From an uncultured Acidobacteriota bacterium (GTDB lineage Bacteria > Acidobacteriota > Thermoanaerobaculia > Gp7-AA8): DNA of 64,000 nt. Numbering within the stretch: the first letter of the stretch is position 1; each line of letters opens with the position of its first letter. The notes under the pieces were generated by a model, which saw only the letters and a list, made by a program, of their open reading frames with translations, made no database searches and had not been told where the DNA came from. Location: positions 96,001-160,000 of the forward strand of contig CAVUKB010000004.1 in the NCBI GenBank assembly GCA_963741955.1, written 5' to 3'. A program made the translations under genes and the position numbers. This document shows, in pieces, positions 1 to 56,394 of the stretch.

Positions 1-7
1 CGCACCG

Positions 8-16826: not shown

Positions 16827-16844
16827 AATTTTTGCCGGCCCTCC

Positions 16845-17070
16845 GAGCCTCGAGCCCCGAGCCTCGAGTCCCGCATCCACTCTTCCGAGCCTCGAGCCCC
16901 GAGCCTCGAGCCCCGCGTCTCTCACCTCGAGCCTCGAGCCTCGAGTCTCGAGCTCCGCGTCTCTCACCCCGAGCCTCGCGTCCCGAGCCTCGAGTCCCGC
17001 GTCTCTCACCCCGAGCCTCGCGTCCCGCACCTTCAGCCTGGAGCAGCGATGACTTCACCTTCGCAGAAAG
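16845..17070 (+). repeat. Heptamer array with 42-bp period + RBS + MTSPSQK start module, copy 2
   Basis: Tracts start at 16845, 16887, 16929, 16971 and 17013; GGAG-cagcg-ATG at 17049. Confidence 0.85.
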
Positions 17071-20000
17071 CCATGAAAATGACGCAATCTCGCCAGACGG
17101 AGTCGCCCATCGGCCTCGACACTCAGAGACAATCAGACTGTCCCTCTCGAACCGGTTTATTCCGGACTACGGAGCGGCAGCAAGCGCGCGCGAGCGCCGC
17201 GCTCGTCGACACTGATCAGACAACCTGCCTGGATCGCCTCGGCGTGACTCTCGACGAGAGCAAGGATCATCGCCACGAGTTCCTCGTTCAGCACGTCCAC
17301 CATGCGGATCTGAATGACAGTGGGAAGACGCTGGGAGCTCAGGGCGAGGAGGTCGCTGAAGTCGAGGTCCCGGGTGACGACGACCCAGCCTTGCCGTCGA
17401 GCTCTCTCCAGAATCTCGGAATCAGCTGCGGTCGGCTCGCCGATCGACATCCAGTGAACGCTCTCGATCCCTCTTGTCGACAGCTTTCGCGCGAGGGAAG
17501 GAGCGAGATTGAAGTCGATCAGCAGCTTCACTGCGGGTCCGCAGCCTTACCGATCTCGACCTCGGCCTCGGACGAACGCCACGCTCCGTACGCCAGTGCC
17601 TCGCGGATGTCCGCTTCCTCGAGGTACGGATACTCGGACAGAATCTCCTCGGCAGTTCGCCCGGACGCAAGGAGCCCGAGGATCGTTCCCACCGTCACCC
17701 GCATCCCGCGGATGCACGGCTTTCCGCCCATGACTGCCGGATCCCTGGTGATGCGTGTCAGCCGATGCATGTCAGCCCTCCAGCGGAAGATCGGCGGTGC
17801 GGCTGCCGATCGTGTCCATTCCATCTCCCGCAACGCCACGGCCCGAACCCGAAATCTCGACAGGCCGAGGCATACTTCGAGCAGCCGCAGGAGCTCGGCT
17901 CTGAGCGGCCTCTCCGCCGCGCTGCTTCTCTTCTTCGCGCTACTTCCCGCCCTCCCTCTTTTCGCCCAATCTCCGACCGAAGTCGTCGTTCAGGAAGACT
18001 TCCAGTCGTACCCGACCCAGGCCAACCCGCAAGGCTGGGTCGATACCTCCGTCGGCAACCCGCACCCCCAGGCCGAGGGGCTGTACAAGACGTGGCCGGA
18101 TCCGACGCAGGGGAACAAGGGAGCGAATGTCGTCTACGGGACGAAACAATCCTCCGGCAAACCGGAAGGGCGCAACCCGCGCATCGGGACATTCTCCACA
18201 CTCGTCGATCACACATTCGGCACAAAGGGACGTTTCGAATACCGCGGGCGTTTCATCCGCACGCGCTCCGACGCGCGCATCGGCCTCACGTTCCTCTCCT
18301 CCTATCCCGACTCCGACCACTATTACCTTCTCGGCCTCTGGTCCCAGGCGACGTCGAGCAAGCTCACCATGCAGCTCTTCTCGTTCGGCGCGGGGACGCT
18401 GACCGGCACCATCGACAGCAACTTCACTCCCGAGCCCGGCAAGTGGATCCGCTTCCTCATTCAGGTCGACGGATCGGACGCTGGCAACAAAATCCGCGCG
18501 CGCTTCTGGATCGACGGCACCGACGAGCCGTCCGGATTCACGATCGAGGCGGAAGACTCCGCCGCGGGACATCTCGCGTCGGGCCGCATCGGTATCTGGG
18601 CCGCAGTCAAGGGCGACGCATACTTCGACGAGCTCTTCGCGAAGTACCCGGTCGACATCACCGCGCCCGCAATCTCCTTCCTCGAGTCGGGAACTACGCT
18701 CAACGACGGCGCGAAGTTCAACCGCGACGTCGCCCCCGCGATTCAGGTCGTCGACGACACCGACCCGAGCCCCTCCTGGTCCGCAACGCTCGACGGACAG
18801 CCGTTCACGTCCGGAACGACGGTCGCCGCCGAGGGAACGCATCTCCTTGCAGTCGACGCGGCCGACTCAGCCGGGAACGCGTCGCACGCCCAGCTCTCCT
18901 TCTTCATCGACAAGACTGCGCCGCTCCTCGCGGTTACCGAATCGGGCGCGCCACTCGCCGACGGCGCGATCTTCGATCACGATGCTGTCGTCTCGATTGT
19001 CGTGACCGACATCAGCGCGACCACCGACGCGATCCTCCTCGATGGCCAGCCTTACACATCGCTCACCCCGATCACCACGGAAGCGCAGCACGAGCTTTCC
19101 GTCTCTTCGATCGACGAGCTCGGAAACGGCCCCACGACGTTCGGTCCGGTTCATTTCTTCGTCGACGAGACCGCGCCGGTCGTGACCATTCTCCAGAACG
19201 GAGCGACGCTCCAGGAAGGCTCGGCGTTCAACCACGACGTCACCGGCTCACTCGCTATCGAAGACCTGACCCCGACCACGAGCTCCATGGCCCTCGACGG
19301 GCAGCCCTATGCGTCCGGAACGCCGATCAGCACCGACGGCTCTCACACCCTCGCCGCGACGGTCACGGACTCCGCTGGTCACACCACCACCGCCGGCCCG
19401 CTCCATTTCATCCTCGACGAGGCAGGGCCCACGGTCACCATCCTCGAGAGCGGCCAGCCGTTCCCGGCGGCCTATTTCTTCAACCGGGATGTCGTCGCGT
19501 CGGTCTCAGTCGACGACATCGCGCCGCACACCGCGACGATGTCTCTCGATGGTCAGCCGTACACGGAAGGGACGCCGATCACCGCCGAAGGTCCGCATGA
19601 GATCTCGGCGCACGTGACGGACACCGCAGGAAACGACGTGACCGTCGGTCCGATCGCGCTCACCATCGACAAGACTCCGCCCGTCGTGACGCTCCTCGAG
19701 AGCGGCCAGCCGTTCGCGGCGGGCCAGACGTTCCCACGCGACGTGGTCGCGGATGCCACTGCCACCGACACGATCTCGAAGGCCACGCTCACTTTGACCC
19801 TCGATGGGCAGACGTACGTCGCCTCCACTCCCGTCACCGCCGAAGGAGAGCACACCTTCGCCGCGACCGCCGTCGACCAGGGGGGGAACACGGCGTCCGC
19901 CTCCGTCTCCTTCGTCATCGACGAGACTCCCCCCGAGTTGTCGTTGCTCCTCGGCGGGCAACCGTTCCCGGCCGACCTCTGGACGAATCAGGATGTCACT

Positions 20001-23000
20001 CCCGAGCTCGACATCGTCGACATCTCCACCACCACGACCGACGCGACGCTCGACGGAGCACCGTACGCGATCGGCGCGCCCGTCTCTCTGGAAGGGGAGC
20101 ACGTTCTCGACGTCGCCGTGACCGATGCCGCGGGGTGGACCACGACGCTCGACGCGGTGACGTTCCACATCGACCGCGTACCTCCGGCACTCACTGTCAC
20201 TTCGCATCAGCAGGGTCAGGTCTTGCCGGAGCCGCGCGTCGTCCTCGCCGGCGGTGCGGATGACGCCGTGAGCGTCACGGTGAACGGCCAGACGGCGACG
20301 GTCGACGCGACGGCGAGAACGTGGACTGCGCCCGAGCTTCCACTGCTCGAAGGAAGCAACGCGTTCACGATCCGCGGGACGGACCGCGCCGGGAACAGCG
20401 GGGAGATCACGCTGAATCTAGTTGCCGACACCCGCGCGCCGGAGCTCGCGATCGTGGCGCCCGTTGCCGGAAGCTGCGTCGCCGGCTCGCCGCTCGAGAT
20501 CCGCGGTTCAGCCAGCGATCCCGAGATCGGCGACGTCGTGGTCTCCGTCGATGGAACGTCGGTTCCCGCCTCGCTCGACGCGTCCGGCAACTTCGTCGTC
20601 ACGTTCGCCAACCTCTCCGAAGGAGAGAAGAACGTCACCGTCACGGCGACGGATACGATCGGACATGCGACCTCGCTCGTCCTCCCGCTCAGCATCGACC
20701 GCACGCCGCCGGTCATCGCCGTCACCGAGGGCGGCAAGCCATTCACCGCGACGCTCGTGAACCGCCCGATTGCACTCTTCATCAGCACCAGCGACGCCGA
20801 CCCGAACGCGAAGCCGGTGGCAACGCTCGACGGCGCGGCGTACTCCTCCGGCTCCACGATTGCGAATGAAGGTGCCCACGCGCTTCAGATCACCGCGACC
20901 GACTGTGCCGGTCTCACCGCGACGAGCTCCCTTACCTTCACCATCGACACGACCGCACCGACCATCACGAACCTCCTCCCCGCCAACGGTGCCACGGTAG
21001 GGGAGATGCCGACGACGGTCACCGGCAAGACCGATCCTGACGTCCACGACCTCGTCGTTCGAGCCTCGAGCCTCGAGTCCCGAGCCTCGTCTTTCGCCCC
21101 CGACGGCACCTTCACCATCCCCAGCGTCCCCTTCGCCGAAGGGGAGAACCGCTTCACGATTCACGCGACCGATGACGCCGGAAACTCCAGCGACACGCCG
21201 TACGTCGTCACCGTCCGCACGACGACTCCTTCTCTCGAGATCCTCGACAGCGGCTCGCCGATCCCGCCCGGCGCGCTCTACAACCGCACCGTCACGCCGG
21301 TGATCCGCAGCGGAGCCTCCGACGCGACGATCTCCGCGACCCTCAACGGCGATCCCTTCACCTCGGGGACGGAGATCACCGCGGACGGCGCGTACACTGT
21401 CGACGCCACCGCCACCGACTCGCTCGGCCACAGCGGGAACGCAACCGCGACGTTCTCGATCGACCGCACGCCTCCCGCTGTCGCGATCGCCTCGCCCGCC
21501 GACGGCGCGGCGATCGACGCCGATCAGGTCGTGGTGACCGGCACGTCCGGGGATGCGACATCCGTCAATGTCGACGGCGCGCCCGCCGCACTCGACGGCA
21601 GCGGCCACTTCACCGCGACGCTTCCGCTCGAACCGGGCGAAACGGCGATTATTGCGACCGGCCGTGACGCCGCCGGCAACTCCGGCACCGCTCAGATCAC
21701 CGTCACCCGCGCCGCTGCTGCGACCGGCATCATCCTCACGTCACCCACCGACCACTCCCTGACCAACCGCCCGACCACAGTCGTCACTGGCCGCATCCTC
21801 ACTCCCGCAAATGCCGTGTCGCTCGTCATCGACGGCACCGCGCTCGGAGCGCAGGCTACCGGCCGGCGCTCTCCTTCAAATGCACCCGGATCCACGCCGC
21901 TCGCGACGGCCCATTCCCCTCTCCCCGTCCGGACCTTTGCCTCGGGCGTAAATCGAACTCCGGGGAGAGGGGTCAGGGGTGAGGGGCAACTACGCGCGCA
22001 AACCGAAGTTGTGAGCACGAGTCCCGAGTCCCGAGCCTCGAGCCTCGCAACTCCCTTCGACCCCACCGGCGCATTTCGCGTCACCGCGTTCCCTCTGGTC
22101 GAAGGCGAGAACACCATCACCGCGACCGTCACCGACAAGTCCGGCAAGACCAGCACCGCGAGCGTCCGGATCACAGCAGACCTGACCCCACCCGCTGTGT
22201 CGCTGCTCGAATCAGGCCAGCCTCTGGAGGACCAGGCCCGTTTCGCGACGCAAGCCCTCCTCTCCGCGACGGCGACCGACTCCGGTGCCGCCATCGACGC
22301 GACCCTCACCATCGACGGCGCGTCTGCCACGTCGCCCGGCACGATCACGGCTGCCGGCCCGCACATCGCAATCGCCTCGGCACGCGACACGGCCGGCAAC
22401 GTGACCCGCGTCCAGCGCACGTTCTTCATCGGTACGGAGCAGGGGAGTGGGTGCGGTCTCTCCGCATTCGATCCTGCCGATGGCTCCGTCGTCACCGCGA
22501 GCTCCGTCACGCTCGTCGGCCGCAGCGGCGGCGCAGCCGGCGTCACGGTCAACGGTGTCCCCGCAGTGGTCGCGAACGGCTCGTTCTCCGGCACCGCGGA
22601 GCTCCCGCAGGAAGGGCCGAACCTCGTCACCATCCGCTGCACCGACGCCTCCGGCAACCCCACCGGCGGCCCGGTCACCCTCACTCTCAACCGCGTCACC
22701 GGCAATCCATCCGTTTCCATCACCACTCCCGCCGAGATGGCGACGTTCGCCGCCGGAACCGTCGATGTCACCGGCACGTACGCCGATGCCTCCCGCGTCG
22801 ACGTCAACGGAGTCGCCGCGACGCTCGCGAACGGAACCTTCAGCGTCGCCGCGCTCCGTCTCTCTCCTGGTCTGAACATCCTGGTCGCCCGTGCCACCAA
22901 CGAAGCCGGCCGCAGCTCCATCGCTTCGCGCCGCGTCCTCTATCTCGACAAGTCGTCCGTGATCTCCATCGACTGGCCGAACGACGGCTTCACCACCGGC

Positions 23001-26000
23001 GCCGCCTCTCTGGACGTCAGCGGCACGTGGAGCAATCTCGTTCCGTCGACCATCACAGTCAGTGTGAGCGGCGTGCAAGAGGCGAGAGACGAGAGGCGAG
23101 GGGCGAGAAGGAACACAACAGGTCGGCTGCGGTCGGCGGAGCCACGATCGAAGAACGATGTCGCGAGCGACGACGGTACGGTTTCTTCACGCACCGCCCG
23201 CCACTCGACACACGCCTCCGATCGCATCGCAGCGCAGGGAGAGAAGAATGAGCTTCGACTATCGCGATCTGAAAGCGTGGCAGCTCGGAATGCAGATGGC
23301 TCGTCGGGTCTACGAGATCACGCGAGATTTTCCGAAGCGAGAACAGTACGGCCTGACGCAACAGATCCAGAAGGCAGCCGTTTCGGTTCCGTCGAACATT
23401 GCGGAAGGTCATGCGAGGGATTCGACGGCGGACTTCCTCCGCCATCTGTCGATCAGTCGCGGTTCGCTCGCGGAATTGGAAACGCAGCTGATCTTGGCGA
23501 AAGCTTTTGGATATCTCCCTCTGCAGAGCCTGGAGGAGTTGATGAAAGTATCGGACGAGCTGAGCCGAACTCTGAGGGGACTTCAAAAATCGTTGAGGCG
23601 TCGACTGGAGAAGAAACCATAGCGGAAGTGTCGATCGATGCGATTGCGTGGTCCGACACGACTGGAAACTTCATCGCTCACGCGGTGCCCTTGCTTCCCG
23701 GTACTCAGACCATCACCGTGACGGGTTCGACCATGGATGGTCGCATCGCCACCACGAGTATTCGGGTGACCAGAATCGATGGCGAATCAGACATTACGAT
23801 CGATTCGCCTCTCGCCGAATCCTGGTTCAGCGCGAACGCGGGAGATCCGATCTCCGTCGCCGGCACCTTCACTGCAGCTCCCGGTTCCAATGTCGAGGTG
23901 AATGGTTCGACGGCGACCCTCGGCGTCGCCTCTTCTTCGACCAGAACAGTCACCCTCGCCGCGTCCTCAACGAGCGCTGTCTCTGCGCACCCCGTTTCTT
24001 CGCTCGCCTCTCGCCTCTCGCCTCTCGCCTCTTCTTCGACCAGAACAGTCACCCTCGCCGCGTCCTCAACGAGCGCTGTCTCTGCGCACCCCGTTTCTTC
24101 GCTCGCCTCTCGCCTCTCGCCTCTCGCCTCTTCTCCTTACTCTGCAACCGCCGCGTTCTCCTCCTCCGACCCCACTCCCATCATCGCCCGCGTCACCCAG
24201 CCCGACGGCCTCTCCGCGATCACGACCATCTTCGTCCATCACCTCTCGGGCGCTCCTGCAGTGAAGGACGTCTTCCCCGCGGACGGCGCCACTTCCGTCG
24301 ATCCCGCAGCGCTGATCCTCGTCTCCTTCTCCGCGCCGATGGACCGCGCGTCGCTCTCGGCCGCATTCACGCTCGAGAACATGAGCGGCATGCCCGTCGC
24401 CGGACAGATGCGTCTCGATCGCGATGTCCTCAGCTTCGCCCCCGCGACGACTCTCAATCCCGGCGAGCGCTATACCGTCCGTCTCTCGACCGCCGCGAAG
24501 GACCTCGCCGGGAATGCGCTCGCCTCCGAGTTCACCAGCAGCTTCACGATCTCCACCACGGCGCCATCCACCGCGCCGGTGGTGAACCCGGTCGCCTCGC
24601 CCCTCTGCTCGGATCGGGTCGCCCTCAGCGGCACGGCACTTGCGGGGTCACGTCTGCGGATCGATTTCAAGGGCGTTCCGCAGTTCACGGCCGCGGCTCC
24701 GACGGAACGTGGCATTTCGATCTCGCCATCCCCGCCGAATCGGGATTCGACGTGGTCCGCGTCCGCATCGTCGGCGGCGACGGCACGCTCTCGCCTGCGG
24801 CCGAAGTGAAGTTCCAGGTCGACTGCGCCGGTCCGCAGCTTCTCGGCGCGTCCTACGACCGCACCACGAACATCGTCACCATCGACGTTCTCGAAGCCGA
24901 TGGATCTCGCATCAGCGTCCACCGGCCGAACTCCGCTCTCTCTCTCCAGATCGCCGACGGCACGATCCTCGGCGGCACCGTCGCGCAGGGCGACGAGCTC
25001 CTCTTCGCTCACCCTTACGCCAGCATCCGATCTGACGCAGCAGACGTTCACGCTCAACGTCACGACCGCGATCAAAGACACTACCGGCCGCAACCTCGTC
25101 TCCGGCTATACGCAGACCTTCGCCACCGGCTCCGGATCCGAACCTCCTCCCACCGACGGCACCGGCTACATCTCCGGCAAGATCCTCGACGCCGCCACCG
25201 GTCGCCCCCTCGCGGGCGCGGACATCACCATTGACGTCCCCGTGAACGCCTTTGCCCGAGGGGAGCAAGCTCATAGCTTGCTCTCTCGTTCCACTGGATC
25301 CGCACCCATGCCTCTCGGGACCTCCGGTTCCCCTCTCCCCGTCCACACCCAGGCCTCGGGCGCAATTCGCACTTCGGGGAGAGGGGTCAGGGGTGAGGGG
25401 CAGCTACGCGCGCTGAGCGAAATCGTAAGCGCCGCTTCGTCCACCCTCTCCTCCGACGCCACCGGCACCTATACCACCCGCCTTCCCGAAGGCGCCTACA
25501 CCATCCACGCATCCGCTCCCGGCTACACCGAGGTCTGGCGCCAGATCGTCGTCCCGGCCGGCCAGGGCGTCCTCCCGATCGACATCCGTCTCACACCCCT
25601 CGGCGCCACCGGCACCGTCGGAGCGGCCTCCATCGAGCCCCGAGCCTCGAGCCTCGAGCCTCGGTTCCGTCGGCTCTCCCACGAGCCCCGAGCCTCGAGC
25701 CTCGAGCCTCGGCTCTGTCGGTTCTCCCACGAGCCCCGAGCCTCGAGCCTCGAGCCTCGGCATCCTCTTCAGACCTGACCCTCTCCCACGGCGGCGAGAC
25801 ATCCGTCACCCGCCCCGCGACGCTGACCGTCCCCTCCGGCGCCGATCACCTCCGGCACGACACTGACACTCACCTCCGTCGGCGGCCAGTCCCTCGCCGG
25901 CCTCCTCCCTCTCGGCTGGTCCCCGCTGGCGTCCACAGAGATCTCCTCCGTCGCCACGTCCGCGAACGCAGCCCGAGGGGAGCGAGCTTATAGCTTGCTC

Positions 26001-29000
26001 TCTCCGAAGACATCCGCAGAAATCGGACCTGCCAGCGCGAATCGCCCAGCGTCCTCCCTCGCCGCTCCGGTTTCGTCCTCACTCGTCTCTCGCCTCTCGT
26101 CTCTCGCCTCTCTCCCCAACTCCACTCTCACGTTCACCGTCCCTTACACCGATATCACCAGCGCGGCTCAGACCCTCACCGCCGTCCGCTACGACAGCGA
26201 TCGCGACGAATGGATCGTCCTCGAGCCCGTCGTCAGCATCACCTCCGACGGCCCCGCCTCGATCACCGTCGACTCCACCGGCGCGTACGCTCTCGTCTAC
26301 CCGGATAAGGACTCGGGGAGTACTCTGCAGACTCCACCGCTCCCCATTCCAGGCTCGGCGCTCGCCGGCGTCACTCCCGTCGACCTCGATCCGACGACCA
26401 TCACCGCATCTCTCACCCTCGATCCTTCGATCGTTCTCCCCAGCGGCCGAACCGTCGGCACCCTCACGGTCTCTCCGAGCCTCGAGCCTCCAGCCTCGAG
26501 CCTCGCGTTCCCCTCGGGCACCGCAGTCCAGGCGTTCGTCCACGAAGAGCTGCGTCTCGTCGACGGAACCGTCGTCGCGGACCAGCCGTTCTCCGCGGAC
26601 CTCGTCCTCTACCGCACGCTCTCCGGCGCTCCGGCGACCGCGGCGTTCCACCTCCAGCCGAGCGCGAAGGCCGCGACGGTTCCGCTGCAGATCGGCTACG
26701 ACCACATCCGCGTCTTTCCGTATCCCGGACGCCTCGACCGCGGCACACTCATCGGCCCCGAGGGTGGACGCGTTCCCTCGGATGGGGGAGTGGAGCTCGA
26801 GATCCCGCCCGGCGCAGCCACCGAGCCGCTCCACGCCAGCGCGACGTCGCTCGACGCCACTGCGCTCGCTTCCTACGGCACCATCGACGGCTTCACCCTC
26901 GTCGGCGGCTTCACGTTCTCGCTCGACCGCGCAGTCGGGGGAGAAGAGGCGAGAGACGAGAGGCGAGAGGCGAGTGGATCTGACGCCCGAGGCTCTCGTG
27001 GCTCGGGCTCTTCGTCACGCGCATCGGAGATTGGAGCTGGCAACGGTGATCGTGAAGCGTTCTCTCTCGCCTCTCGTCTCTCGCCTCTCGCCTCTGACGT
27101 CGCGTCCCCCACGCTTCTCGCCTCCGCCCGCGCGACCTTCTCCGTCGACACGACCAATCTCACCGCGCCCCAGTTCATCCTCGCCGAGGTCCTCGGCGAC
27201 ACGCCGTACGGCCGTGTGATCCGTCTTGCGAACGTGATGGAACCACTTGTTGGAGGAGCCGAGGCTCGAGACTCGAGGCTCGAGGCTCGCAGCGGCATCG
27301 CCCGTGGAGAGCAGGCTTATAGCCTGCTCCCTCCGGTACCATCTTCAGACACGGGTGTCGCGAACGATCATCGTCAGGCGTCCTCTCTCGCCTCTCGCCT
27401 CTCGTCTCTCGCCTCTGATTCCACGCGCATCACCACATCCAGGATCGATCCCTCGAACCTCCCTCTCGACGGCATCTCCCACTCCGGGATCTACCTCCTC
27501 CTCCGCGCGAACCAGCCCATCGCCTACGCGACGGGTCTCGTCCGCTTCGGCATCTCCGGCCTCTACGCCTCCGACGCCAGCGTCCTCTCACTCACGTCGA
27601 CGCCACTCGGGACGGCGTCGGTCAAGGAGGCGAGAGGCGAGAGGCGAGAGGCGAGGGGAGGAACGAATTCCGGACTTCTGTCATCGTCACCCGCTGATGC
27701 GCAGGCTCATAGCCTCCGCTCTGGTTCCGGCAAATCCGTACCCGCGACTCTCGCGACGCCCGCTTCCCCTCTCCCCGTCCGCACTCTCGCCTCGGGCGCA
27801 AATCCCAATTCGGGGAGAGGGGTCAGGGGTGAGGGGCAACTACGCGCGCAGAACGAGGTCGCTCGCAGGGCCTCCTCCCTCGCCTCTCGTCTCTCGTCTC
27901 TCGCCTCTTCTCCCGCGTCGCTCGCCGCTTCGTCCCCCCTCGGCACCACCGACCTTACCCGCCCCACCGGCCTCTTCTCCATCCCCGTCGTCGCCACTCC
28001 CGCGGATCCCTTTGCGCTCCAGCCCTCGCACCCATCCACCGGCGCCGGCACCCCCTGGACCGCAAACTCCAGCCCTGACCCCGGCATCGTCATTCACGTT
28101 GGCGATCTTGTTCTCACATCGCAGCCGCCGCAGCTCCAGCACGTCAACGTCATTGGCGGCGACCCCTCCGGCACGATCGACCTCGTCGCCGTGAACGGGG
28201 CAGGCGAGATCTCCCTAGGCACGAGTGTTCAGGCCCTCTTCGACGTGAACCTCGATCCGGCATCCGCCGGCGCGACCTCGCTCGTCGTCACCGACGCGTC
28301 CACGCAGACCGTCGTCGCGGGCACCGCGATGCTCGCCGGCTCGACCCTCACCTGGACCGCATCCACTCCGAACGCGCTTGCGCCGTCGAGGCAATACAGG
28401 GTGACCCTCTCAGCCACGCTCCGCGGCGCGAACGGCGCCCCGCTTGGGACGACCCGCACGTTCGCCTTCACCACCGTTTCGCAGATCACCAGCACCGAGA
28501 TCGATCCTTCCAAGATCCACATCACCATCCCCGACGCGAACGGCGTATCCACAATTTACGGCCTCCCCGGCGCGCTCCCCTCCGGCTGGCGCGCCGTCGC
28601 CCTCCGCCGCGGCACCGCCTTCGTCACGCAATACCAGACCACCGCCGCAGGGGATGGAAGTTTCTCGTTCGCGATCGGCGGGTGCGGGGGAGGGACGGGG
28701 GTCGGGGGTCAGGGGTCAGGGGTCAGGGAGCTGAGTCGATCTGATCGCCGGACCTCTGAGATTTCCCGCGACGAAGCCTTGTCCCTGTATTCGTCGACCC
28801 ACACGTCACCCCGACCCCTGACCCCCGACCCCGGACCCCTAAGCTCCGTCTCGCAACCACAATTACGAAAGGCCACTCATGAAGATACAAACCTATCGCG
28901 ATCTGGTCGTCTGGCAGGAATCGATGCAGCTCGCGAAACAGGTGGTCCTGATCGCGCGTCGGTTTCCTCGGGAGGAACTCTTCGGATTGTCGGCGCAGGT

Positions 29001-32000
29001 CAAGAGAGCAGCCGTATCGGTGCCGTCGAATATCGCGGAAGGGCACGCGCGGGATTCGACGAAGGAGTATCTCCATCATCTATCGATTGCTCACGGTTCT
29101 CTGGCCGAAGTGGAGACGCAGCTCCTGCTGGCGAAGGATCTTGGCTGGGGAGACTCGTCTTCGATCGAAGGAGCTCTCCAACAGAGCGATTCACTCGGCA
29201 GGAAGCTTCACGCATTACGCAGATCGCTTCGATCGCGCCGCTGACGGCGGCTCTCCCTGACCCCCGACCCCTAACCCCTGACCCCCACTCCCGTCAGGCG
29301 ACTACGACATGCACGGACCAGCTCTCCCTCACCGACCACATCTCCCTCGAGATCCTCAACACCGCCGACAACATCGCGGCGATCATCCCGCTCACGCCAT
29401 TCGTCACGGCGGACGGCCACGGCTTCGTCGCCCCGCCCGACCAGGACATCACGTTCATCATCTCGGACGAGATTACCGTCCACGTCCCCGCCGGCGCGTT
29501 CGACCAGCCAACGCTCGTCACCGCCACGCCGTCCACGAAGGACGCCTTCTCCGAAGTCCCGAACTTCGACACAGAGCTCGACTACAAAGCCTCGGTCAAC
29601 CTCTCCTTCGACTGCACAGTGGCTTCTTCGTCCTCCCCGAGCCTCGAGCCTCGAGCCTCTAGCCTCGGTTCCCCAAGTCTCGGTTCCCCAACGAGCCTCG
29701 AGCCCCGAGCCTCGAGCCTCGCGTTTCCCTGTCGCGCGAACAAGCCCCTCGACCTCTCCATCCCGGTTCCCGCAAACACCGACCCCACGAAGCAATACCT
29801 CCTCGGCTGGCTCGGCCAGTCCATCCGCGGCCCGCGGATCATGATCGTCGACACCCTCCGCATTGACGGCGACCACTTCACCACCACGCCCGCGCCGTCG
29901 ATCGGAACGACCAGTGCGCAAACCGTGCACGCATCGTCGACCTTTTCAAACTCGTCGCTCTACCAGGTTCGAGATCCCGGAACGTACGTCATCACCTCAC
30001 TGCTCAGTCCCTACGCCTGGGTGGATGTCGTCGTCAGATCGGCTGACCTCTACTGGTCGACGTCGTTCTCTCTCTTCGTCGCAGAACGCTACATCACGAT
30101 GGCGAAGGGTCACGTATACATCCCCGTGCTGACGGACACGCCCTTCCGCGTCTACGGCGTGGACGCGACCGGTTTCGAAACCTATTCGCGCGATTACGAC
30201 GGAATCGTTCCTGGAGATCCTGGAGTTTCGGTAGCACTCCCATCGGCATCTCCCGATAACAATGGACCTTATCCCGTGTGGGGCAGCCCTTATCGCGTCG
30301 ATTCCGTAATCCTTCGCGATGGAGACGTGATCGTTCCAAACATCAAGGTCAATCAGTCGGGAGGAGTTGCGACGGTCACGCAGAACTCTTCCTCCACCAC
30401 CGCGAGTGTTCTTTCGAAGGGAACGAAGGTTCAGGCATTCGACGTCGAAACCGGCGCGGTGAACAGCGCGACAGTCGGTGACGGCGGCAGTTTCTCGATG
30501 TCAGTTTCTCCGGTCCATTCCGGAGACCGTCTTCTTCTCTTCATCAGTGCCTCCGACGTCGATCCGTCGAGTCTCGTCACCGTGGTTTTCAACGAGCCGC
30601 TCCAGCTCGCGAACATTCCGGAAGGCATGAGCTCCGCGGATGCCGAGATCGCAAACGAGAAGTTCCTGCACGACCTCATCGGCCTCGAGCACTTCACTAG
30701 TACGGGATGGGTACCGATAACCGACCAGGTGCACTTCCGGCACGATTCGGGAGACCGCCGAATCGTCCTCGAGTTGCCGTCCTCGCTGGTTCGAGGCGAT
30801 CGGTATCGGGTTCACCTCAGCGAGGCAATCACCGACGCCGGGGACAACCACATCGGATCGGTTAAGGACTCCAGCGGGAAGGTCACCAACGGCGCTGGAC
30901 TCCCGTTGGATCTCGAATTCACGGTCCGCAGCCCACACGGCGCGATCTCCTCTTTCGACATCGATCCGAGCACGGCTCACCATGGAGGGCTCGTGCGTGA
31001 CATCGCACGCAACGACACCCTCGTCTTCGTCTCGGCTCTCGACGGCGGAATCCTCGCCTACGATACATACGATCCGGCTGCACTCGCAAAAGACGGAAGC
31101 ACTCCGGCGCCCCTTTCCTTCGTGCCGGCCGCATGGACCAACGATGCCGGACAGCAGGTGACCGGCGGGATGGACGAGCACTGGGCGCTTGCCGTCGATA
31201 AGCACGGGCGCGTCTTTTCGACCGGCTTCATGGCCTCGTTCTCGGTCCTTCGGACTTACCGCGTGGAAGATTTCTGGAAGGCCTCCACTCAGCCCATGTG
31301 TGCCGGATTCGATCAGGCGCCACCGCACGCCCTCTGTAGATACGAGGGCTCCTCAATCATCGCCTGGCGCCCCGGAGTGTCGCTCGGCATTCCCGGGATC
31401 GACGATTCCCTCTACGGACTGACGGAAGGCTATCCGCGAAAGATCCGAGTCATTGAGCAGGACGATGGAGGGGAAGCTCTAGATCGAGACAACTTTGCGT
31501 CGACCTACGGAGGCGCGATCCAGAAGACCTTCAGCAATGGGATTCAGAAACTCTCCGTCACCGTCGCATGGGATACCACGAATCCCTACCAGCTCCAGCG
31601 CATTACGGTGGAGAACCTGACTCAACAGCTTCACTGGTCTGCCGACGCGACCCCGACGTCTCCTGCCGTGATCTCGGAGATCCTCGCCAAACCGGACGAC
31701 AAGCTCCGAATTGTGAAGAACGAGCGCACGTGGGCCGTCGTATCTCTCTTCGGCTACGGGATCGCCACCTACGACGTGAACGCCATCGAATCCAATGATT
31801 CACCAGATAAGGCTGCGGGTTACACCAACGTACCCGAACAGCTGTTCCTCTCGTCCGCCAGCGTCGACGATGCGTGCGACGGCCGGACGTTCCCGACCGA
31901 GGCGATCCGGGATTTGGCCTTCAGTCCCGATTTCGTCGCGAAAGTGGAAGTCGACGCCACGACCAACACAGCGACCATTGGGATCGACGCTCTCGATGTC

Positions 32001-35000
32001 CGCAAAGGCGTACTCGACGTCCTCACCCCGATCGGTGGGGGACTCCAGAAGGGGTCATGCCTCCAGCGGTGGGCGGGACTCATCGTGAACGACCCGGCGT
32101 CCGGATACCTCCTGAGCCGGTTTCAGGGCGTCAACGACGAATTCACGGAGAAACATCACCCGAACCCGTTCATTCGATTCAGCTCGGCCGACTATTTCGA
32201 CTGGACTGTCCAGGCAGAAGACAACACCATCGGACTTCGGGGATCGGAACCCGGCACGAACGTTCATCGTGAGTACGCGCTGGTCGCCGGTGGAGACTAC
32301 GGGCTCCTGGTGGTCGAGATCGGTGGCGATCCCCTCCCGAGCAAGGCTCCAGTGACTCATCCGCTCGATGCGGTGAACCTGGTCGACGACATCTGGTTCC
32401 CTGCAGGGGCCTATGCCGTTCGAGCGATTCCCGGTACCTCGATGGCCGCAGTCCTCGATGGGAAGCACCGGCTGCTGCTCGTCGACCTCTCGAGGATCGA
32501 CGAACGGTGGGACGAAGGCGTCGGGCCGAACGATTTCTTTCCCATCCCGGATGCGGCGATGAAGAACAAAGGTGGGCTCCCTGACGAGGTGGGTGTGGAC
32601 GACCCACGCATCATCTGGAAGTCGAAAGAGGACTTCATCGCTGGAAGCATTGCGCCGATCGTCGACCCGCGCACGGGCATCGTTTACGCGGGCGATTCCA
32701 CTGGCAAGAAGGTGAAGATCGGGTCAGTCCTCGATCCGCGGGTACGAGCACTCGCAGATCCCGATGGCACGGGACAACTGCGGGAGGTTGGCTCGGTCTT
32801 TGGCCTCGGAGTGAAGACCCTTCTCGCTCTTCCTTCGGTCGGTGGGCTCTCGGCGTTTCGATTCGAGGTCGATCTTCCCGGAGGCGTCGCTCAGTCGATC
32901 TCGGATCACAAACTCCACTTTGCCGTCGAAAGTGAGCGCCTCCCGGGTGTGGCCGAATTGCAGACCGCCGCTCCATGGCCGCTGTCGAGCCTCCGACTGA
33001 CTACACGTTCCGGTGAGGCGGAGCTGACCGGCAGGCAGACCGATATCGTTCTCGAGCAGGAGCTCACGAGCGGATTGACGCCGGAGGAGGTGGCGGAGCT
33101 CGCCCCGATCCTTCGAAAGCAGGAAGGATCCGCGCGATTCGTCTCGCCCTGGATCGTGGTCCTCGCAGATCCGCGTGCGAGCGAAACGGCGGCCCCACCC
33201 GTGGGCGGCCTTGCCGCTGCCGGATGTGAGAACTGCGTGCGGCCCGAGGCGCTTCGGAACAAGAGTCGAAGCGATGGCGTGTACGAGATCATGGCCACCG
33301 GCCCGCGGATTGCGATTCGTCCCGAGTGCGAGCTCGCCGCAGGATGCAACAACGTATTCGCGGGAACCCCGTACGAATATCTTGGCCAGAAGGGGAGACT
33401 CGAAGCGGTCCTCCAGACCACTCCCGCCGATACGATTCGCCCGACGGAAGCGCTCGTCGCCGCACAGAACCCTCCCGTCGCCGACGGGATGTTCCAGGAC
33501 GCGATCTATCTTCACAGTGGCGAGCTCGAGACTGTCTCGACGGACCTTGATGCGGGAGGTCGCGCTGGCTTCGAGGTCACGATCGATCGCTTCTACCGAT
33601 CGCGATCGATGGGAATGTCCCCGCTCGGCAATGGATGGGACTCGCCGCTGTACCGGCGTTTGCGGCAGCTTCCGGATGGGAGCGTCGAGTACCGCGACGG
33701 GGCGGATGTCTGGATCTTCAAGACCGGCGACGCCAGCACGGGAGTGGCGGACGTTCTCGCATCGATCGTTCGTCCGACTCTCGTCTACAAGTCACCGGCC
33801 GGACTCGATCTCAAGCTCGTCGCGAATCGCGACGGATGGGTCCTGATCGACCAGCAGTTCCGACTCACCCGATTCGACACGACCGGGCGCCTCGTCTCCG
33901 AGTCGGACGTGATGTACGACCCGAACAAGCCCGGGTCGGGCAACGTCATTCACTATCTCTATGATGACGAAGGTCGCCTCGCGCGCATCGTCGATCCTGT
34001 TGGGCGAGAAACGACGCTCACGTACTGGCACTACGGCGACGACCCGGCGAGGCGCTACCCCGGCCTTCTCGCGAAGGTCACCGACTGGCGTGGCCGTGAG
34101 GTCGAATACGACTACGATGCCGAAGGTCGCCTCACGGACGTTCGGCTCCCCGAAGCCGCCGCAGCGGACGGCGTTCCGTCGAAGTATTCCCATAGCCGGT
34201 GCGGCGCGCCCCGTGATCCACTACACGTACGACAAGACTCCCAGCCAGATCGCGTCGGGTCTCGATGCCCAGCACTCCCCGGAGGTCCTCGACTCGATGG
34301 AGTTCGTCGGAAATCTCGGCAGCGAAACGGATCCTGCCGAGGTCGCGTCCGGCGGCCCGCCGCGAGTGAGCTACACGTACGGCGCCGCTGGCGACGCGCT
34401 CACGCGCGACCGCATCTCGATCCAGCACTGGCCGTGCGGAAATCACGTCGGTGGTAGCTGCTCGAACCTCGACGCAACGCTGTCCTGGACCGCTTCGAAC
34501 GCGGTCAAAACGACCGATGTTCTCGGGCAGGTGCGGGAGTACACGCTGACCGATCCCGCGAAGTATGACGAAAAGGTTCACATCGGATCGATCAAAGCGT
34601 CCATACCAGCCATCGACTACTCGAACGGATTGCCGGAGGTAGCGCAACCTTCCCTGACACCCACCAGCGCCGACATTTCTATGAGTTACGAGTACGACGA
34701 CGCCGGAGAGATCCACATTGCCGACTCGTCCACGGGCCTCAAAACGCAACTCGACCACAAGGCGGCGAACAACGGGGCATCGGGCGAGCTGCTCTACGGA
34801 ATTGTTCAGATGGCACCGTCAATCGGTCAGTTAATCGCGAGCGTCGGTTACGACAATGTGCATCCGACCTCATCGAACGTGCTCTTTCAGATTGGGCGTC
34901 CGGATGCGGCGACAGGCAAGGATGTTTTTCGTGAACTTTCCATCGGCACACGCGATCGATCGAGCATCGAGCGCACCGATGCGGGAACGAAGAGCACCAC

Positions 35001-38000
35001 GAGCTTTGATGATGCCGGTCGTGTGAAAGAGATCAAGACGGTGGATGACCAGGGTACCGTCACTCAAGTCACGAAACTCACGCCGTGGGGCGATACCGAT
35101 GGCACCCTCGCCATTGCACGGGGCCGAAATCACGTGGTCGACTCCGGAAATGGGAGCGTCGTCACCGAGATCTCGTACCAGGATGGTCCCGGCCACGGAA
35201 TGATCGTCACCGCGACGGACCAGAAGAATTCCGCGGAGACGGTGACCTCGTATGACGCGGCCGACCGGCCCATCCACGTCGTCGTGACCGGGCCGAGCGG
35301 CACTCTGAAGGACGAGACGTACGGCTACGACGCGTCGGGACGACTCGCCTTCACGCGCCGCAAACAGAAGGGCGTCGGCAACGTCACCAGCGAAACGACC
35401 TTCGACGCGATGGGCAGGGTCGTCAAGACCACCCTCGACCAGACCTCGGTAGGTGGCTCGCTGCAGAATGTCTCCGCGAGCAGCAGCTATGACCTTTCCG
35501 GCCACACGATCCTGACCGAGCCCCTCCACGCAGGTTCCGCTCCGTACACGACGGAAACTCAGATCGACACACTCGGTCGAGTGGTCAAGCGCACCACGAA
35601 CGGCACAACGGACGGAAGCCTCATTTCGGTATTCGGCTACGACAAGCATGGGCAGCAGAGCTATGTCTCCGACACCGTGCGCACCGCAGAGATCCGGCAG
35701 TTCGACGATCTCGGACGGCAGATCGGCTCCGCCACATCCGATGGTCGGAAGACAATTACGACCTGGTCCGCCTGGAACGAGCCGCTCGAAACCACCGAAT
35801 ACGCCTCAGATGGTTCGATCTCCAGCCATGACAAGAACATCTTCACTTCTCATGGCCGCCTTCGTGCGACCAACGAGGCAATCGTCACGAATGGCGCTGC
35901 CCGGCAGTCCCGCTTCAGCTGGGATGATGGCGACAAGACTCACGGAACCTCGGTCGCACCGATCGCATCGATCGACACGATCAATCTCACCGGTCCGAAC
36001 CGTCGGGCGGAATCCGTAGTCGACGACGCCGGACGCACGATCGCGACGCGAATGGGGCTCGGTAACGGCATCGCGAAGTCCCTTCTTGATGACGGCTCCG
36101 TGATCTTCGGATCGAGCGATACGAACTACCTCGGTACCCTTCCCCTGAGCGTCACGACGAGAGAGCCACTGGCGGGAGCCCAGTACGCGACCACGACGTC
36201 CTATGATGTCCTGGGCCGCCCGATCGCCAGCACCCTGGCGGGCATCTACACGACGAAAACTGAATGGGACGAGGCCGGCGATGGCCTCAGCGTCACGCGC
36301 CCGGGGACGAGCCCCGAAAGTGCGACGTATGACTCCCGTGGCCTCGTTCTCACAAGGACCCTTCCCGACAACGAGACGCAGTCGTACCAGTACGACTCCC
36401 TCGGCGGCGTCACCACCTCCACCGACGAAGCCGGTGAGCCGACGATTTACACCCGCGATGACCTCGGGCGCGTGAAACTGATCCGCTATCCCGATGCCAC
36501 CACGGAGGAGACCCAGTACGAGCCGGTCACGGGCGCGGTTCTCGCGCACAAGAATCGCGCCGGCACCTGGCTCTCGTACGCCTACGACGCTGCGGGACGG
36601 GTGACGGAAGTGCACGAAGGCGAGGACCCTGCGAACGGAAAACTCCTCGAGAAGTACCAGTACGACGCCGCCGGACGTCTGCAATTCGCGAAGAATGCCG
36701 ACGCCTGGATCGAATACGCGGATTACGACCTGCTCGGCCGCCGGCACACCACGCGCAGCTACCGGCTCGCCGGCGATGGACTCGCGCTCACTGCGACGAC
36801 GCTCGACATCCACACGCAGAGACACGACTGGAACGTTTACGACGAGCGCTCGTCGTGGCACATGCCGGTCAACGGGTTCGAAGTTCCCAACGACGACCCG
36901 AATCTCCCGTGGCTCCAGACGATCGTCGAGACTCGGGATGCCGGATCGAATCTCGTCGGGCAGGCGAGACCTGACGGAACGCTTCTCACCGAGGCCACTC
37001 CCCGCGGCGCGGGGCGCGTCAAGGATCGCACGGTGCATCTTGCGGGAGGCTCGGTGGCCGTGACCTCGTTCGCATTCGAAGACGGCAATCCGGTTCCCCC
37101 CACCGGAGATGAGATCCCGGGTCTGTCGTGGCCAACCGGTCCGTCCACAGGGTTTCCTCTCGGCGACATCACCGAGTCGAATGGCACCGTGATCTCCGGA
37201 AGCCTCCTCGATCGCGATTCGGCCGCCCGGGTCGCGAAGATCGATCTCGCCGGGCTCGTCTCGCACGAATCGAGCTTCGGCTATGACGGTCGGGGACGCC
37301 TCCAGCAGTCGCTCCTCATTTGGCCCGACGGAAAACTTGATTCAGCACCGAAGACGATCGACACGTTCGTCCCTGCCGACTTCCTCACTCTCCACGAAGC
37401 TCCTTCGGCACTCTCTACAGCGCAGAACCAGAAGCTCGGGGAGAAGGCCTGGTCGATCGAGCCCGCAACCTGGAGCGCCTCGCGGCGGACCGGCGGACGG
37501 ATCGGAACGCTTACTCTTTCTCTGCCGGGTCTGAACGAAAGCGCCCGCACGTTCCAGTACACCGGCGGCCGCCGCACCTCCGACGGAGTCTGGACTTACA
37601 CGTGGGACGATTTCGAGCGGCTCACCGCGATGGAGAACCCCTCCACCTCGCGCCGTATCGAGTTCCGGTACGACACGAGCGGCCGCGTCATTTCCCGTAC
37701 CGCGTATCGGATCGGCGGCACGGAGCCGCTCCTCGAAGACCGTGGGGACATTCTCGCGAAAGACGGGCTTCCGGCCGACACGACGTTCGTCTGGGATCCG
37801 ATCGCCGACCGTCTCGTGGCCATCTTCGAAGGGCGCCAGACACTGGTCCCCGGCGGCCCGAAACCGTACGACGGTCTCCTCCGCCAGATGCTCCATGGCG
37901 ACCAGGGGTACGACGATCCGGTCGAGGTCCTCAAACGCGTCGGCGGCAGCTCGTCGTACCCCGAGGTCGAGCACTTCTATCCGGTGGTCGACCACTCGGG

Positions 38001-49575: not shown

Positions 49576-49628
49576 ACACATTTCAGGTTGGCGTAGCGAC
49601 GGGCCAACTCGGCCTGGATCTCTACCTG

Positions 49629-50843: not shown

Positions 50844-50844
50844 A

Positions 50845-51711: not shown

Positions 51712-51726
51712 CAGCGACCTAACTCC

Positions 51727-56318: not shown

Positions 56319-56394
56319 GCTTCACCTTGTCATTCGCGCGCTAAGCTCGCGGAGGATGTGGTGTCGCGCACCGGCTTCTTGTGAGCGATCGTCA

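Follow-up and report, generated by a model that had tools for sequence, protein, structure and literature searches.

Intervening-sequence-type cassettes as the probable source of in-frame inserts in a giant Rhs-type gene

Thirteen inserts were counted, between 21.06 and 29.72 kb, in a giant Rhs-type gene carried by the stretch of 64,000 nucleotides analysed here (the window). The explanation that we favour, at a probability of about 0.6, is that they are selfish cassettes of the intervening sequence (IVS) type together with gene-less derivatives, lodged in permissive loops of the host protein and tolerated in frame. The preliminary description of this DNA had kept selfish elements tolerated as loops as its fallback, and this is the option that fits best. 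Coordinates are collected in Table 1.

Table 1. Positions in the window of the host gene, its inserts, the nested four-helix-bundle (4HB) genes and related repeats
Feature	Position	Strand	Description
Host giant Rhs/YD-type polymorphic toxin gene	17769..39645	+	Based on translations, Pfam, collinear tblastn and frame mapping versus P0152 and P0062
Nested gene 1 (124 aa; W1), in I3	23248..23622	+	PF05635/TIGR02436; frame +1 versus host; 0 host-frame stops
Nested gene 2 (121 aa; W2), in I12	28879..29244	+	PF05635/TIGR02436; frame +1 versus host; 0 host-frame stops
I1	21057..21092	+	Solo CGAGCCT tract, read RASSLESRASS; ~+4 aa versus orthologues, some native loop residues replaced
I2	21864..22040	+	Copy of 178-nt repeat D2 and CGAGTCC/CGAGCCT tract; 59-aa window-only gap
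I3	23076..23630	+	555-nt cassette: left arm AGAGGCG x4.4 (23078-23108), 139-nt spacer, nested 4HB gene; without right arm
I4	23922..24125	+	99-nt unit with CTCGCCT tract, 2.1 tandem copies; one copy in sister P0152
I5	25233..25445	+	34-nt hairpin (25254-25287) and D2 copy (25265-25442)
I6	25605..25765	+	48-nt units x3, CGAGCCT tract in each; host frame changes in the window, P0152 uninterrupted
I7	25959..26117	+	Hairpin (25971-26004) and CTCGTCT/CTCGCCT tract (26076-26117)
I8	26475..26507	+	Solo CGAGCCT tract, loop of variable length
I9	26940..27101	+	Gene-less: AGAGGCG arm (26945-26977), 86-nt spacer, CTCGCCT arm (27064-27101)
I10	27255..27416	+	AGGCTCG arm (27260-27293), hairpin (27300-27333), CTCGCCT arm (27381-27416)
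I11	27600..27932	+	GAGGCGA arm (27627-27660), hairpin-like copy, D2 copy (27701-27878), CTCGCCT arm (27871-27908)
I12	28698..29303	+	606-nt cassette (202 codons): arms GGGGTCA (28698-28728) and TGACCCC (28808-28840), nested 4HB gene, arm TGACCCC (29255-29285)
I13	29631..29723	+	CGAGCCT tracts x2; ~30-aa window-only gap versus 8/8 orthologues
CGAGCCT tract x8.3	13831..13895	+	Inside other giant ORF (2..15253), outside the reported span
Array of 42-nt CGAGCCT-containing units	16838..17039	+	Non-coding, between ISL3 element and Rhs-type gene start

The inserts are built, as initially described for about a dozen of them, from heptamer tracts, hairpins and nested genes. Tracts of three heptamer families (CGAGCCT/AGGCTCG, AGAGGCG/CTCGCCT and GGGGTCA/TGACCCC) span positions 21059-29721 and are commonly arranged as inverted arms. 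Most copies are devoid of a gene and consist of two arms around a short spacer or hairpin, or of a solo arm. The insert positions are clean gaps: in alignments with 6-8 orthologous giant proteins (45-57% identity), the comparison suggested at the outset, 11 of the 13 inserts (I2-I7 and I9-I13) are present only in the window, while I1 and I8 lie in length-variable loops whose native residues are partly replaced. The I5 insert gives ~70 aa where the orthologues have ~5 aa. All 13 fall within 8.7 kb of the host gene versus none in 24 kb of ordinary genes downstream, a clustering for which tolerance alone does not account.

The host gene (~21.9 kb) codes for a protein with a signal-peptide-like start, Ig-like repeats, DUF6531, RHS repeats and a C-terminal Tle1-like phospholipase domain (Pfam and translations); its orthologues used for collinear tblastn are proteins of 5800-7300 aa. 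A single Rhs-type gene does house all the inserts, as had been proposed, but as sequenced it does not form a single continuous reading frame there. Eight small frame breaks were mapped versus the sister proteins P0152 and P0062, near 24698, 24885, 24940, 24990, 25628, 25765, 25840 and 34180, and stops interrupt frame 0 at 24807, 25776 and 25839. The residues that match orthologues shift to frame 2 at ~24698-24991 and ~25757-25843, and to frame 1 from ~34186. P0152 and P0062, which are nearly identical to the host protein, are uninterrupted where the window has breaks and read straight through I4, I5, I6, I7, I8 and I13. Given its eight breaks the host gene may be a pseudogene in the window strain, in which case no claim of present-day selection on it would hold. 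The transcript of >35 kb that had been envisaged is not supported, the first giant ORF (2..15253) being separated from the Rhs-type gene by an ISL3 transposase gene on the opposite strand (15271-16491).

The two nested genes proved to be whole TIGR02436-type genes, each with a putative ribosome-binding site. Their products match PF05635 (E = 1e-37 for gene 1 and 3e-35 for gene 2) and TIGR02436 (122 and 118 bits; cut-off 24), and a purine-rich Shine-Dalgarno-like stretch is read from the sequence 4-8 nt 5' of each ATG. The protein of nested gene 1 matches PDB 2gsc at E = 1e-26. Their fold kinship with Avd of diversity-generating retroelements, noted previously, is borne out by weak matches to bAvd (PF22296) and NF033474 and by the homology given in the available part of PMC10053308. 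An assignment as Avd proper was rejected at 25-30 bits versus a cut-off of 80; a Pfam scan of 22 window ORFs gave no reverse transcriptase domain, and no template/variable repeat pair was seen.

Openness of the host frame through the inserts exceeds chance. Across the 2861 nt of insert no stop falls in the host frame of any of the 13, whereas the two remaining frames have 10 and 28. The TGACCCC/TAACCCC arms present CGA, GGA or TGG in the host frame, leaving TGA/TAA out of frame only. The host-type frame is open in 4 of the 86 4HB genes examined (W1, W2, L068 and L079), and synonymous-codon shuffles (20000 trials each) kept it open in 0.14% of cases for W1 (P = 0.0014), 3.7% for W2 (P = 0.037) and 0.21% for L068. 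The alternative frame was stop-free in none of the 86 genes and none of 60000 shuffles. Only one register is therefore survivable, which accounts for the +1 register that the nested genes do share (frame 1, host in frame 0); its interpretation as a sign of mechanism was rejected. Frame neutrality, reported for all inserts, applies as sequenced to 12 of the 13 and fails at I6, where a frame break occurs. The stop-free host frame indicates that the inserts would be translated through, and argues against excision or bypass.

Inverted heptamer arms are predicted to form long terminal stems in I12, I9 and I11 (z = -3.8, -4.1 and -6.4, respectively), those of I12 by pairing of its outer arms around the nested ORF and that of I11 exceeding 30 bp. 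The arms of I10 are only partly complementary (z = -1.8), and no terminal stem or special fold was formed by I3, which has an arm on its left side only. Stems longer than 30 bp in mRNA are expected RNase III substrates. Predicted stems of this length sit uneasily with simple read-through, and RNase III may cut the stems of the inserts.

The cassette architecture is general. Flanks were compared for 83 4HB genes, 81 from other genomes of many phyla and the window's two (80 loci were fetched, the window's own genome not being among them). Flank complementarity reaches z <= -3 in 45/83 and z <= -2 in 56/83, and a 7-periodic arm is found in 25 of the 83, control periods giving 4 upstream and 4 downstream. 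The arms measure 22-71 nt (median 32 nt) and are frequently heptamer arrays that resemble the Coxiella 23S rRNA IVS. The usual site is between co-oriented housekeeping genes, at median gaps of 68.5 and 52 nt from the neighbouring ORFs, with the recurrent neighbour pairs IMPDH/GMP synthase, PDH E1-beta/E2-E3, RF-2/LysS and ArgG/ABC-2. rRNA was absent from all 20 short related loci that were searched, and no promoter is recognisable for the cassettes themselves. A second nested case, long-maintained, is found in PglX. In locus L068 (Nitrosomonas sp. ANs5) the same cassette type, whose arms also form a predicted terminal stem, is nested in frame within a BREX PglX methyltransferase as a clean insertion versus PDB 8c45. 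Three further PglX proteins carry it with the host frame open and insert peptides 66-69% identical, the nested cassette being thus common to four diverged orthologues. The three nested 4HB genes (W1, W2 and L068) lie no nearer to one another than randomly chosen pairs do, so that each nesting arose independently.

The nested genes belong to the family of the PF05635 'S23p' ORFs found in rRNA IVSs (Coxiella, Leptospira, CPR). The suggested kinship extends beyond the protein family, as attested by the terminal stems of I12, I9 and I11 and by the complementary flanks: common features are complementary termini, a long stem round the ORF, tandem heptamers adjoining it, and residence inside a host transcript without a recognisable promoter. 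In the Coxiella 23S IVS the termini pair into a stem of 28 bp that RNase III cleaves in vitro, and 3-4 tandem heptamers precede the S23p ORF (PMC4990558, available in part); CPR bacteria are reported to have PF05635-type ORFs as well, in their 16S and 23S insertions (PMC11270868, likewise in part). Here, in contrast, the host is a protein-coding gene and not an rRNA helix, so that the element has to keep the frame and avoid stops; its whole length is overlapped by a second reading frame, and excision is neither needed nor indicated. Rickettsia palindromic elements, selfish repeats compared by description, are also short in-frame palindromic repeats within ORFs, which, reportedly from the work of Ogata et al. 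in 2000, are translated as surface segments and occur in many copies per genome. They are gene-less, whereas the present inserts have tandem heptamer arms, a complete other-frame gene in two copies and the link to the rRNA IVS family. The G-rich heptamers of Xanthomonas and Nostoc (GGGAATC, GGGGAYT) are similar in their unit and in the arm lengths given above. The available text of PMC4692102 describes them as transcribed, with about four units preferred and occasional inverted pairs, lying between co-oriented genes no more than 50 bp from an ORF end and under-represented in coding regions; 'S23' and 'intervening' have 0 occurrences in that text, and the 4HB/S23 family is not mentioned there. 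Two of the three window heptamer families differ from them in not being G-tract-rich. MITEs and REP/BIME sequences are likewise short, multi-copy and strongly structured elements that lack genes and end in inverted repeats, but for the cassettes neither a definable target-site duplication nor a linked or cognate transposase was found, their arms are built as tandem arrays rather than unique terminal repeats, and a non-transposase gene is present in some copies. Inteins and group I/II introns are also intervening elements of ORFs that may bear their own gene; no splicing domain was found in the host-frame insert peptide (a PT-HINT match belongs to a different, downstream gene) and no intron RNA family was matched in Rfam.

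Two alternatives act on RNA. RNase III could cut the arm-arm stems as in 23S rRNA, freeing the 4HB mRNA and chopping or down-regulating the giant transcript without religation, the full-length protein then arising only from uncut transcripts. The predicted stems of I12, I9, I11 and L068, the cleavage of the Coxiella stem and the position of cassettes inside transcription units, which suits an element that is cut out, all favour this course of events. On its own it leaves the open host frame through every insert without explanation, I3 has no stem, and coupled translation is expected to hinder long-range RNA pairing; it retains a minor but appreciable chance and can coexist with selfish cassettes. 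Excision from mRNA or ribosome skipping guided by the 4HB protein, with inserts absent from the protein, was the original proposal and is now highly improbable. In its favour are the relation of the family to excised rRNA IVSs and to nucleic-acid-binding Avd, arrays of 4-5 heptamers as candidate binding sites and two solved homologues deposited with 5 chains each. Insert length and stops would however be free to vary under excision or bypass, yet in-frame length and absence of stops are strongly non-random: the host frame is stop-free in 13/13 inserts, codon choice in the nested genes avoids host-frame stops, and the PglX insert keeps the host frame open despite 31-34% peptide divergence. The Rfam scan gave no other match either, and to our knowledge no bacterial RNA ligation pathway of the required kind has been described.

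The inserts could otherwise serve the host as variable linkers or contingency switches, slippage altering stalk length or toggling the giant toxin gene. Heptamer arrays (7 = 1 mod 3), like tandem units, would lengthen or shorten through slippage, unit number at I4 differs between the window and P0152, one frame change falls at I6, Coxiella strains vary in heptamer copy number (PMC4990558, in its available part), and heptamer repeats elsewhere function in phase variation, according to literature available in part. This role is unlikely, given that frame differences between window and sisters are single bases, mostly outside tracts, and not 7-nt steps, that the arms are degenerate rather than perfect repeats, and that orthologues of other species are mostly devoid of such tracts: a heptamer-type 7-aa-periodic run appears in 1/81 long homologues, period 7 being no commoner than control periods. 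A decaying pseudogene passively gathering repeats, its open frame a by-product of GC-rich, stop-poor sequence, would agree with the breaks and in-frame stops of the window copy; heptamers such as CGAGCCT and CTCGCCT are incapable of giving a stop, whatever the frame, and I1, I6 and I8 are stop-free in all three frames. It is decidedly unlikely in view of the 38 stops that these inserts have in their two remaining frames, of nested genes open only through special codon choice, of uninterrupted sister sequences and of the stops in the host-type frame in the other 81 4HB genes, from other genomes. Mis-joining of repeats during assembly might be suspected from the repetitive inserts and from clustered small length differences between the window and another assembly. 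Its probability is close to negligible, since an independent assembly has the same inserts at identical places (P0002, P0062, P0152, P0153) and the same architecture exists in a genome record of Nitrosomonas sp. ANs5 without a MAG label, as well as in the three other PglX proteins.

According to the selfish-cassette explanation, IVS-type elements, putatively mobile, would have invaded the permissive loops that a giant, modular, secreted Rhs-type protein offers, in a bacterium that probably belongs to Thermoanaerobaculia (Acidobacteriota). A full cassette comprises an array of ~4-5 heptamers, a small PF05635/TIGR02436 4HB gene preceded by a ribosome-binding site, and the heptamer array in inverted form. 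Elsewhere such cassettes usually reside within transcription units without interrupting a protein, in rRNA helices or in spacers between co-oriented housekeeping genes. A cassette inside an ORF would persist only when in frame and without stops, so that the present inserts would be the survivors of this filter, kept open by purifying selection. They would be co-transcribed with the host gene and their peptides probably translated as low-complexity loops of the giant protein, while the 4HB gene, probably expressed as well, would be translated from that mRNA through initiation at an internal site, in the sole register that allows two open frames.

The inserts lie in the second of two giant genes of the window (G+C ~64%), whose features are compiled in the table below. 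The domains recognized by Pfam in this host gene comprise Ig-like repeats (Glucodextran_B, Big_13, Big_5), DUF6531, RHS repeats (RHS_repeat) and a C-terminal Tle1-like phospholipase/catalytic domain. It is followed at its 3' side by orphan toxin/immunity cassettes (WHH, Tox-REase-7, PT-HINT, NucA/B, SUKH genes) and by repeats of the Rhs core end. The locus thus shows every character of Rhs/YD-repeat polymorphic toxins, from the RHS repeats, pre-core domain and C-terminal toxin domain to the orphan cassettes downstream, and is therefore of the Rhs polymorphic toxin type. The orphan cassettes are arrayed with SUKH-type immunity genes alongside and have core ends that are 86–97% identical, a disposition typical of Rhs loci. 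The DUF4238 and TIR-domain genes that adjoin the toxin locus are a possible defence pair. The transcript of >35 kb put forward in the preliminary description is unsupported: an insertion sequence (IS) element lies between the two giant ORFs, which are separate genes.

Features of the window (4HB, four-helix-bundle gene)
Feature	Position	Strand	Details
First giant ORF, 5'-open	2..15253
Internal duplication in first giant ORF	11108-11730 and 12314-12936		623 nt, 99.8% identity
CGAGCCT tract in first giant ORF	13831-13895		x8.3; ORF remains open
ISL3-family insertion sequence, two copies	15243-16827 and 47992-49576		1585 nt each, 99.8% identical; the former copy lies between the giant genes
ISL3 transposase gene	15271..16491	opposite	separates the two giant genes
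Second giant gene (host)	start near 17769, end 39645	+	signal-peptide-like stretch at start
Heptamer families of the inserts	21059-29721		CGAGCCT/AGGCTCG, AGAGGCG/CTCGCCT, GGGGTCA/TGACCCC
Nested gene 1 (4HB, in I3)	23248-23622		124 aa; PF05635 E = 1e-37, 128.6 bits; TIGR02436 122.1 bits
Nested gene 2 (4HB, in I12)	28879-29244		121 aa; PF05635 E = 3e-35, 121 bits; TIGR02436 118.4 bits
Stops in host frame 0	24807, 25776, 25839
Changes of frame of orthologous residues	near 24698, 24885, 24940, 24990, 25628, 25765, 25840, 34180
Orphan Rhs C-terminal cassettes	40728-59660 and 62092-63999		WHH nuclease, Tox-REase-7, PT-HINT, NucA/B
DUF4238 and TIR-domain genes	60117-61856	-

The thirteen inserts (I1–I13) are built from three heptamer families on which Tandem Repeats Finder, a repeat finder and a periodicity script concur. 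The same region carries a 34-nt hairpin in three close copies, plus a fourth at 65% identity, and three copies of a 178-nt repeat. A 1200-residue host-frame query searched against 1.84 billion representative proteins matched 86 proteins at E <= 1e-30, many of them 5800–7300 aa long and 45–57% identical. Alignment with 6–8 orthologues bears out the expectation that the inserts are clean gaps for eleven of the thirteen (I2–I7 and I9–I13), which are found only in the window; I1 and I8 are situated in length-variable loops, where I1 replaces native residues in part. The larger inserts without a gene consist of an arm (a heptamer array at the insert end), a spacer and an inverted arm. A long terminal stem is predicted for I9 (z = -4.1, 0/200 shuffles) and I11 (z = -6.4, 0/100 shuffles), while I10 folds weakly (z = -1.8). 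The outer GGGGTCA and TGACCCC arms of I12 are predicted to pair around its ORF (z = -3.8, 0/20 shuffles), and I3, which has a left arm only, displays no special fold (z = +0.55). Between 22.9 and 29.4 kb a sigma-70 promoter scan returned no site, and five terminator-like sites were found against 2.1 expected. Heavy colonisation by heptamers is specific to this lineage, because the 7-aa periodicity that they encode does not exceed control periods in the long homologues (3 runs versus 1–2). Two orthologues from other species, P0009 and P0016, contain short heptamer-coded peptides of the SPLASRLSSL and GEGSGVR types; those of P0016 are at the I7 and I12 sites, and P0009 carries one at the site of I7 and another, long, at a different site. 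These peptides hint that colonisation was repeated or that insertion has hot spots.

The two nested genes belong, as proposed, to the TIGR02436/PF05635 four-helix-bundle (4HB) family. Both proteins are full-length matches (profile positions 1–105 of 106) with scores far above the curated cut-offs (33.8 bits for PF05635, 24 bits for TIGR02436). Their closest solved relative, with the fold assigned by sequence, is PDB 2gsc (XCC0516; E = 1.3e-26), followed by 2rld (E = 1e-4); each of these entries was deposited with five chains. Assignment to the diversity-generating retroelement (DGR) accessory protein Avd was rejected, since the NF033474 scores (29.9 and 25.2 bits) are far under the cut-off of 80 bits. 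Pfam detected no reverse transcriptase domain among the 22 window ORFs scanned.

The statement that the nested genes introduce no stop in the host frame holds over the complete set of inserts: their 2861 nt have no stop in frame 0 and 10 and 28 stops in the other two frames. The frame is also kept on both sides of 12 of the 13 inserts; the claim of frame neutrality fails only for I6 in the window, where the near-identical database protein P0152 keeps the frame. Among 86 4HB genes (84 from 80 related loci of other genomes and the two of the window), the frame equivalent to that of the host is stop-free in four, namely both window genes and those of loci L068 (Nitrosomonas sp. ANs5) and L079 (an Acidobacteriaceae MAG). 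The third frame is stop-free in none of the 86, nor was it open in any synonymous-codon shuffle that retained 4HB protein and codon usage (20000 trials per gene). The +1 register shared by the nested genes is therefore the only one possible. In the same shuffles the host frame was open in 0.14% of trials for gene 1, 3.7% for gene 2 and 0.21% for the L068 gene, so its openness requires selected codon choice. The arms conform to this pattern: the heptamers of the I12 TGACCCC arms and of the L068 TAACCCC arm read CGA, GGA or TGG in the host frame, TGA and TAA being left only out of that frame. Host-frame openness, codon choice and arm heptamers would all be accounted for by translation through the inserts. 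Excision from the RNA or ribosomal bypass, as envisaged in the preliminary description, would make both a stop-free host frame and the choice of codons unnecessary.

A second nested case is provided by L068, where the cassette is carried within the BREX methyltransferase PglX with the 4HB gene at +1. An AGGGGTT-like left arm and then a GGAGG ribosome-binding site precede the ORF, a TAACCCC-like right arm follows it, and the termini of the cassette are predicted to pair around the ORF (z = -2.1, 2/100 shuffles). Residues 274–429 of this PglX align opposite 17 residues of the solved PglX chain 8c45. The three host-frame "shadow" peptides were combined in a profile, whose search against proteins of 220–2000 aa identified three further PglX proteins with the insert at the same site and the host frame open. 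Their insert peptide is 66–69% identical and the flanks 54–89%, and from these comparisons the nesting appears to have been kept through substantial divergence. The nested copies do not constitute a specialised clade: tree distances among the three nested genes (0.95–1.07) resemble the median of random pairs (1.1). They are thus as distant as random family members, and nesting has arisen independently at least twice.

The host gene as sequenced is interrupted by eight single-base length differences relative to near-identical database proteins, which produce the stops and the changes of frame compiled in the table. Seven of them fall within 1.15 kb (24698–25847) and the eighth at ~34180. In both clusters of differences the frame is recovered downstream, and no obvious homopolymer context was seen; the 15-kb first ORF has none of these differences. 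The near-identical sister proteins P0152 (992 aa) and P0062 (2879 aa), from a Thermoanaerobaculia MAG by source naming, are uninterrupted through the break sites and through I4–I8 and I13. The 99-nt unit of I4, present 2.1 times in the window, occurs once in P0152. The window ORF 25995..34457 is itself present in the protein collection. The breaks could stem from an assembly error, a strain mixture or a real mutation with recent inactivation. Whatever the cause of the breaks, the frame that contains the inserts is open in the sister sequence.

Relatives of the cassettes are found mostly outside coding sequences. Scanning genomes with nested gene 1 yielded at least 511 relatives. The best 80 loci, among which the window's own genome does not appear, show 44–61% identity and are distributed over Planctomycetota, Acidobacteriota, Pseudomonadota, Chloroflexota, Bacteroidota and others. 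Among the 83 4HB genes with enough flanking sequence (81 from the best 80 loci and the window's two), complementarity between the upstream and downstream flanks reaches z <= -3 in 45 and z <= -2 in 56. Upstream, 18/83 have a 7-periodic arm, and downstream 12/83, versus 4 and 4 for control periods; the heptamer tracts by 4HB genes measure 22–71 nt (median 32 nt) with a stricter script. Median gaps between the 4HB gene and the neighbouring ORFs are 68.5 and 52 nt. Both neighbours are co-oriented in 43 of 74 cases, an underestimate because several opposite-strand ORFs have no Pfam match. Of the 157 neighbour ORFs, 100 (from 52 loci) were scanned with Pfam; 75 of these had matches, which revealed recurrent housekeeping pairs: IMPDH upstream (7 loci) with GMP synthase downstream (4), PDH E1-beta upstream (6), RF-2 upstream (3) with LysS downstream (2), ArgG with an ABC-2 permease (3) and PrmC with DinB (2). 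The same operon spacers (guaB-guaA, PDH E1-beta to E2/E3, prfB-lysS, argG to ABC-2, prmC-dinB) are reused across genera in these 52 loci (L001–L054), which suggests old vertical inheritance or site preference. In L079 (9956-10470) an intergenic 4HB cassette keeps the "host" frame open over 169–182 aa with no surrounding host gene; it may be a relic of life inside an ORF or pre-adapted for it. Open spans antisense to the 4HB genes of L025, L008 and L036 have no Pfam match and are probably spurious. The 1135-aa span in a Pirellulales MAG (L025, 8452-11856, minus strand) is probably a GC-rich artefact, the alternative being a large host gene that carries the cassette in antisense orientation.

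The architecture recalls several known systems. In the rRNA intervening sequence (IVS) of Coxiella, RNase III cuts a terminal stem of 28 bp, and 3–4 heptamers stand before the S23p ORF (PMC4990558). PF05635 proteins are likewise described in insertions of the 16S and 23S genes of CPR bacteria (PMC11270868) and in cas loci, where they are wedged between cmr genes (PMC3936711). G-rich heptamer repeats of about four units occur near ORF ends in Xanthomonas and Nostoc, and the published passages on them draw no tie to the PF05635 family (PMC4692102). I12 and L068 share with rRNA-type IVSs the complementary termini that enclose an ORF, unlike I3, but the inserts of the window reside in a protein-coding frame and not in a 23S or 16S rRNA helix. 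Rfam at gathering thresholds matched neither the whole window nor 20 short related loci, rRNA families included, and an intron, riboswitch or rRNA context is therefore dismissed. Group I/II introns and inteins were rejected on the same absence of Rfam matches and because Pfam finds no Hint/intein domain in the insert-bearing host segments. The inverted arms give the inserts a resemblance to MITEs; no target-site duplication is definable from the junctions, and the ISL3 element, the only transposase source in the window, gives no sign of a link. The inserts behave as RPE-like palindromic repeats do, being within ORFs, in frame, stop-free and absent from orthologues; the likeness is one of behaviour alone, and membership of the RPE family by sequence is not claimed. 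The evidence is best fitted by selfish cassettes of the IVS type, which agrees with the fallback idea of selfish elements tolerated as loops. Such cassettes would normally reside in non-coding parts of transcripts and would survive inside ORFs on the rare occasions when they are in frame and stop-free. The window would then record a burst of cassettes, specific to this lineage, within the stalk of a giant modular protein; orthologues elsewhere (for example P0009 and P0016) show only traces.

A wider reading takes PF05635 cassettes as a single, widespread class of autonomous "genes within genes" that reside in transcripts. A pentameric four-helix-bundle protein would recognise its own flanking arrays of 4–5 heptamers, as RNA or single-stranded DNA, and drive processing of the cassette and/or its copying into DNA that is transcribed. 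The element would have three kinds of landing site, namely rRNA helices, operon spacers and ORFs, and the in-ORF copies would be true dual-coding genes that are long maintained. This reading is tentative, with a probability of roughly one in five. Apart from the Coxiella IVS heptamers, the literature searched contained no account of PF05635 cassettes inside protein-coding genes or of a link between heptamer arms and 4HB genes; the supplementary repeat tables of PMC4692102 and Table S4 of PMC11270868, beyond the search, might bear on the link.

A practical effect of such inserts is that automatic annotation divides giant genes into pieces and that short-read assemblies break; in the sister assembly, contigs terminate in the I12 arms. 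In bacteria it is rare for a complete gene to be nested on the same strand in a different frame and for both frames to be maintained. The window has two such genes in one host gene, to which the independent BREX methyltransferase case, seemingly kept through substantial divergence, is added. Three observations that are separate in the literature searched are joined here: rRNA IVSs that carry an S23p ORF, the unexplained G-rich heptamers repeated about four times, and "four helix bundle" genes wedged into operons and cas loci. The shared features suggest that they are one cassette architecture, and the old question of the role of IVSs and of their ORF is thereby opened to direct tests of protein–arm binding and of RNase III processing. 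If the wider reading of an autonomous class is true, the 30-year-old rRNA IVS and its "S23p" ORF would at last have a function, and the cassettes would be a new kind of mobile element without a conventional transposase.
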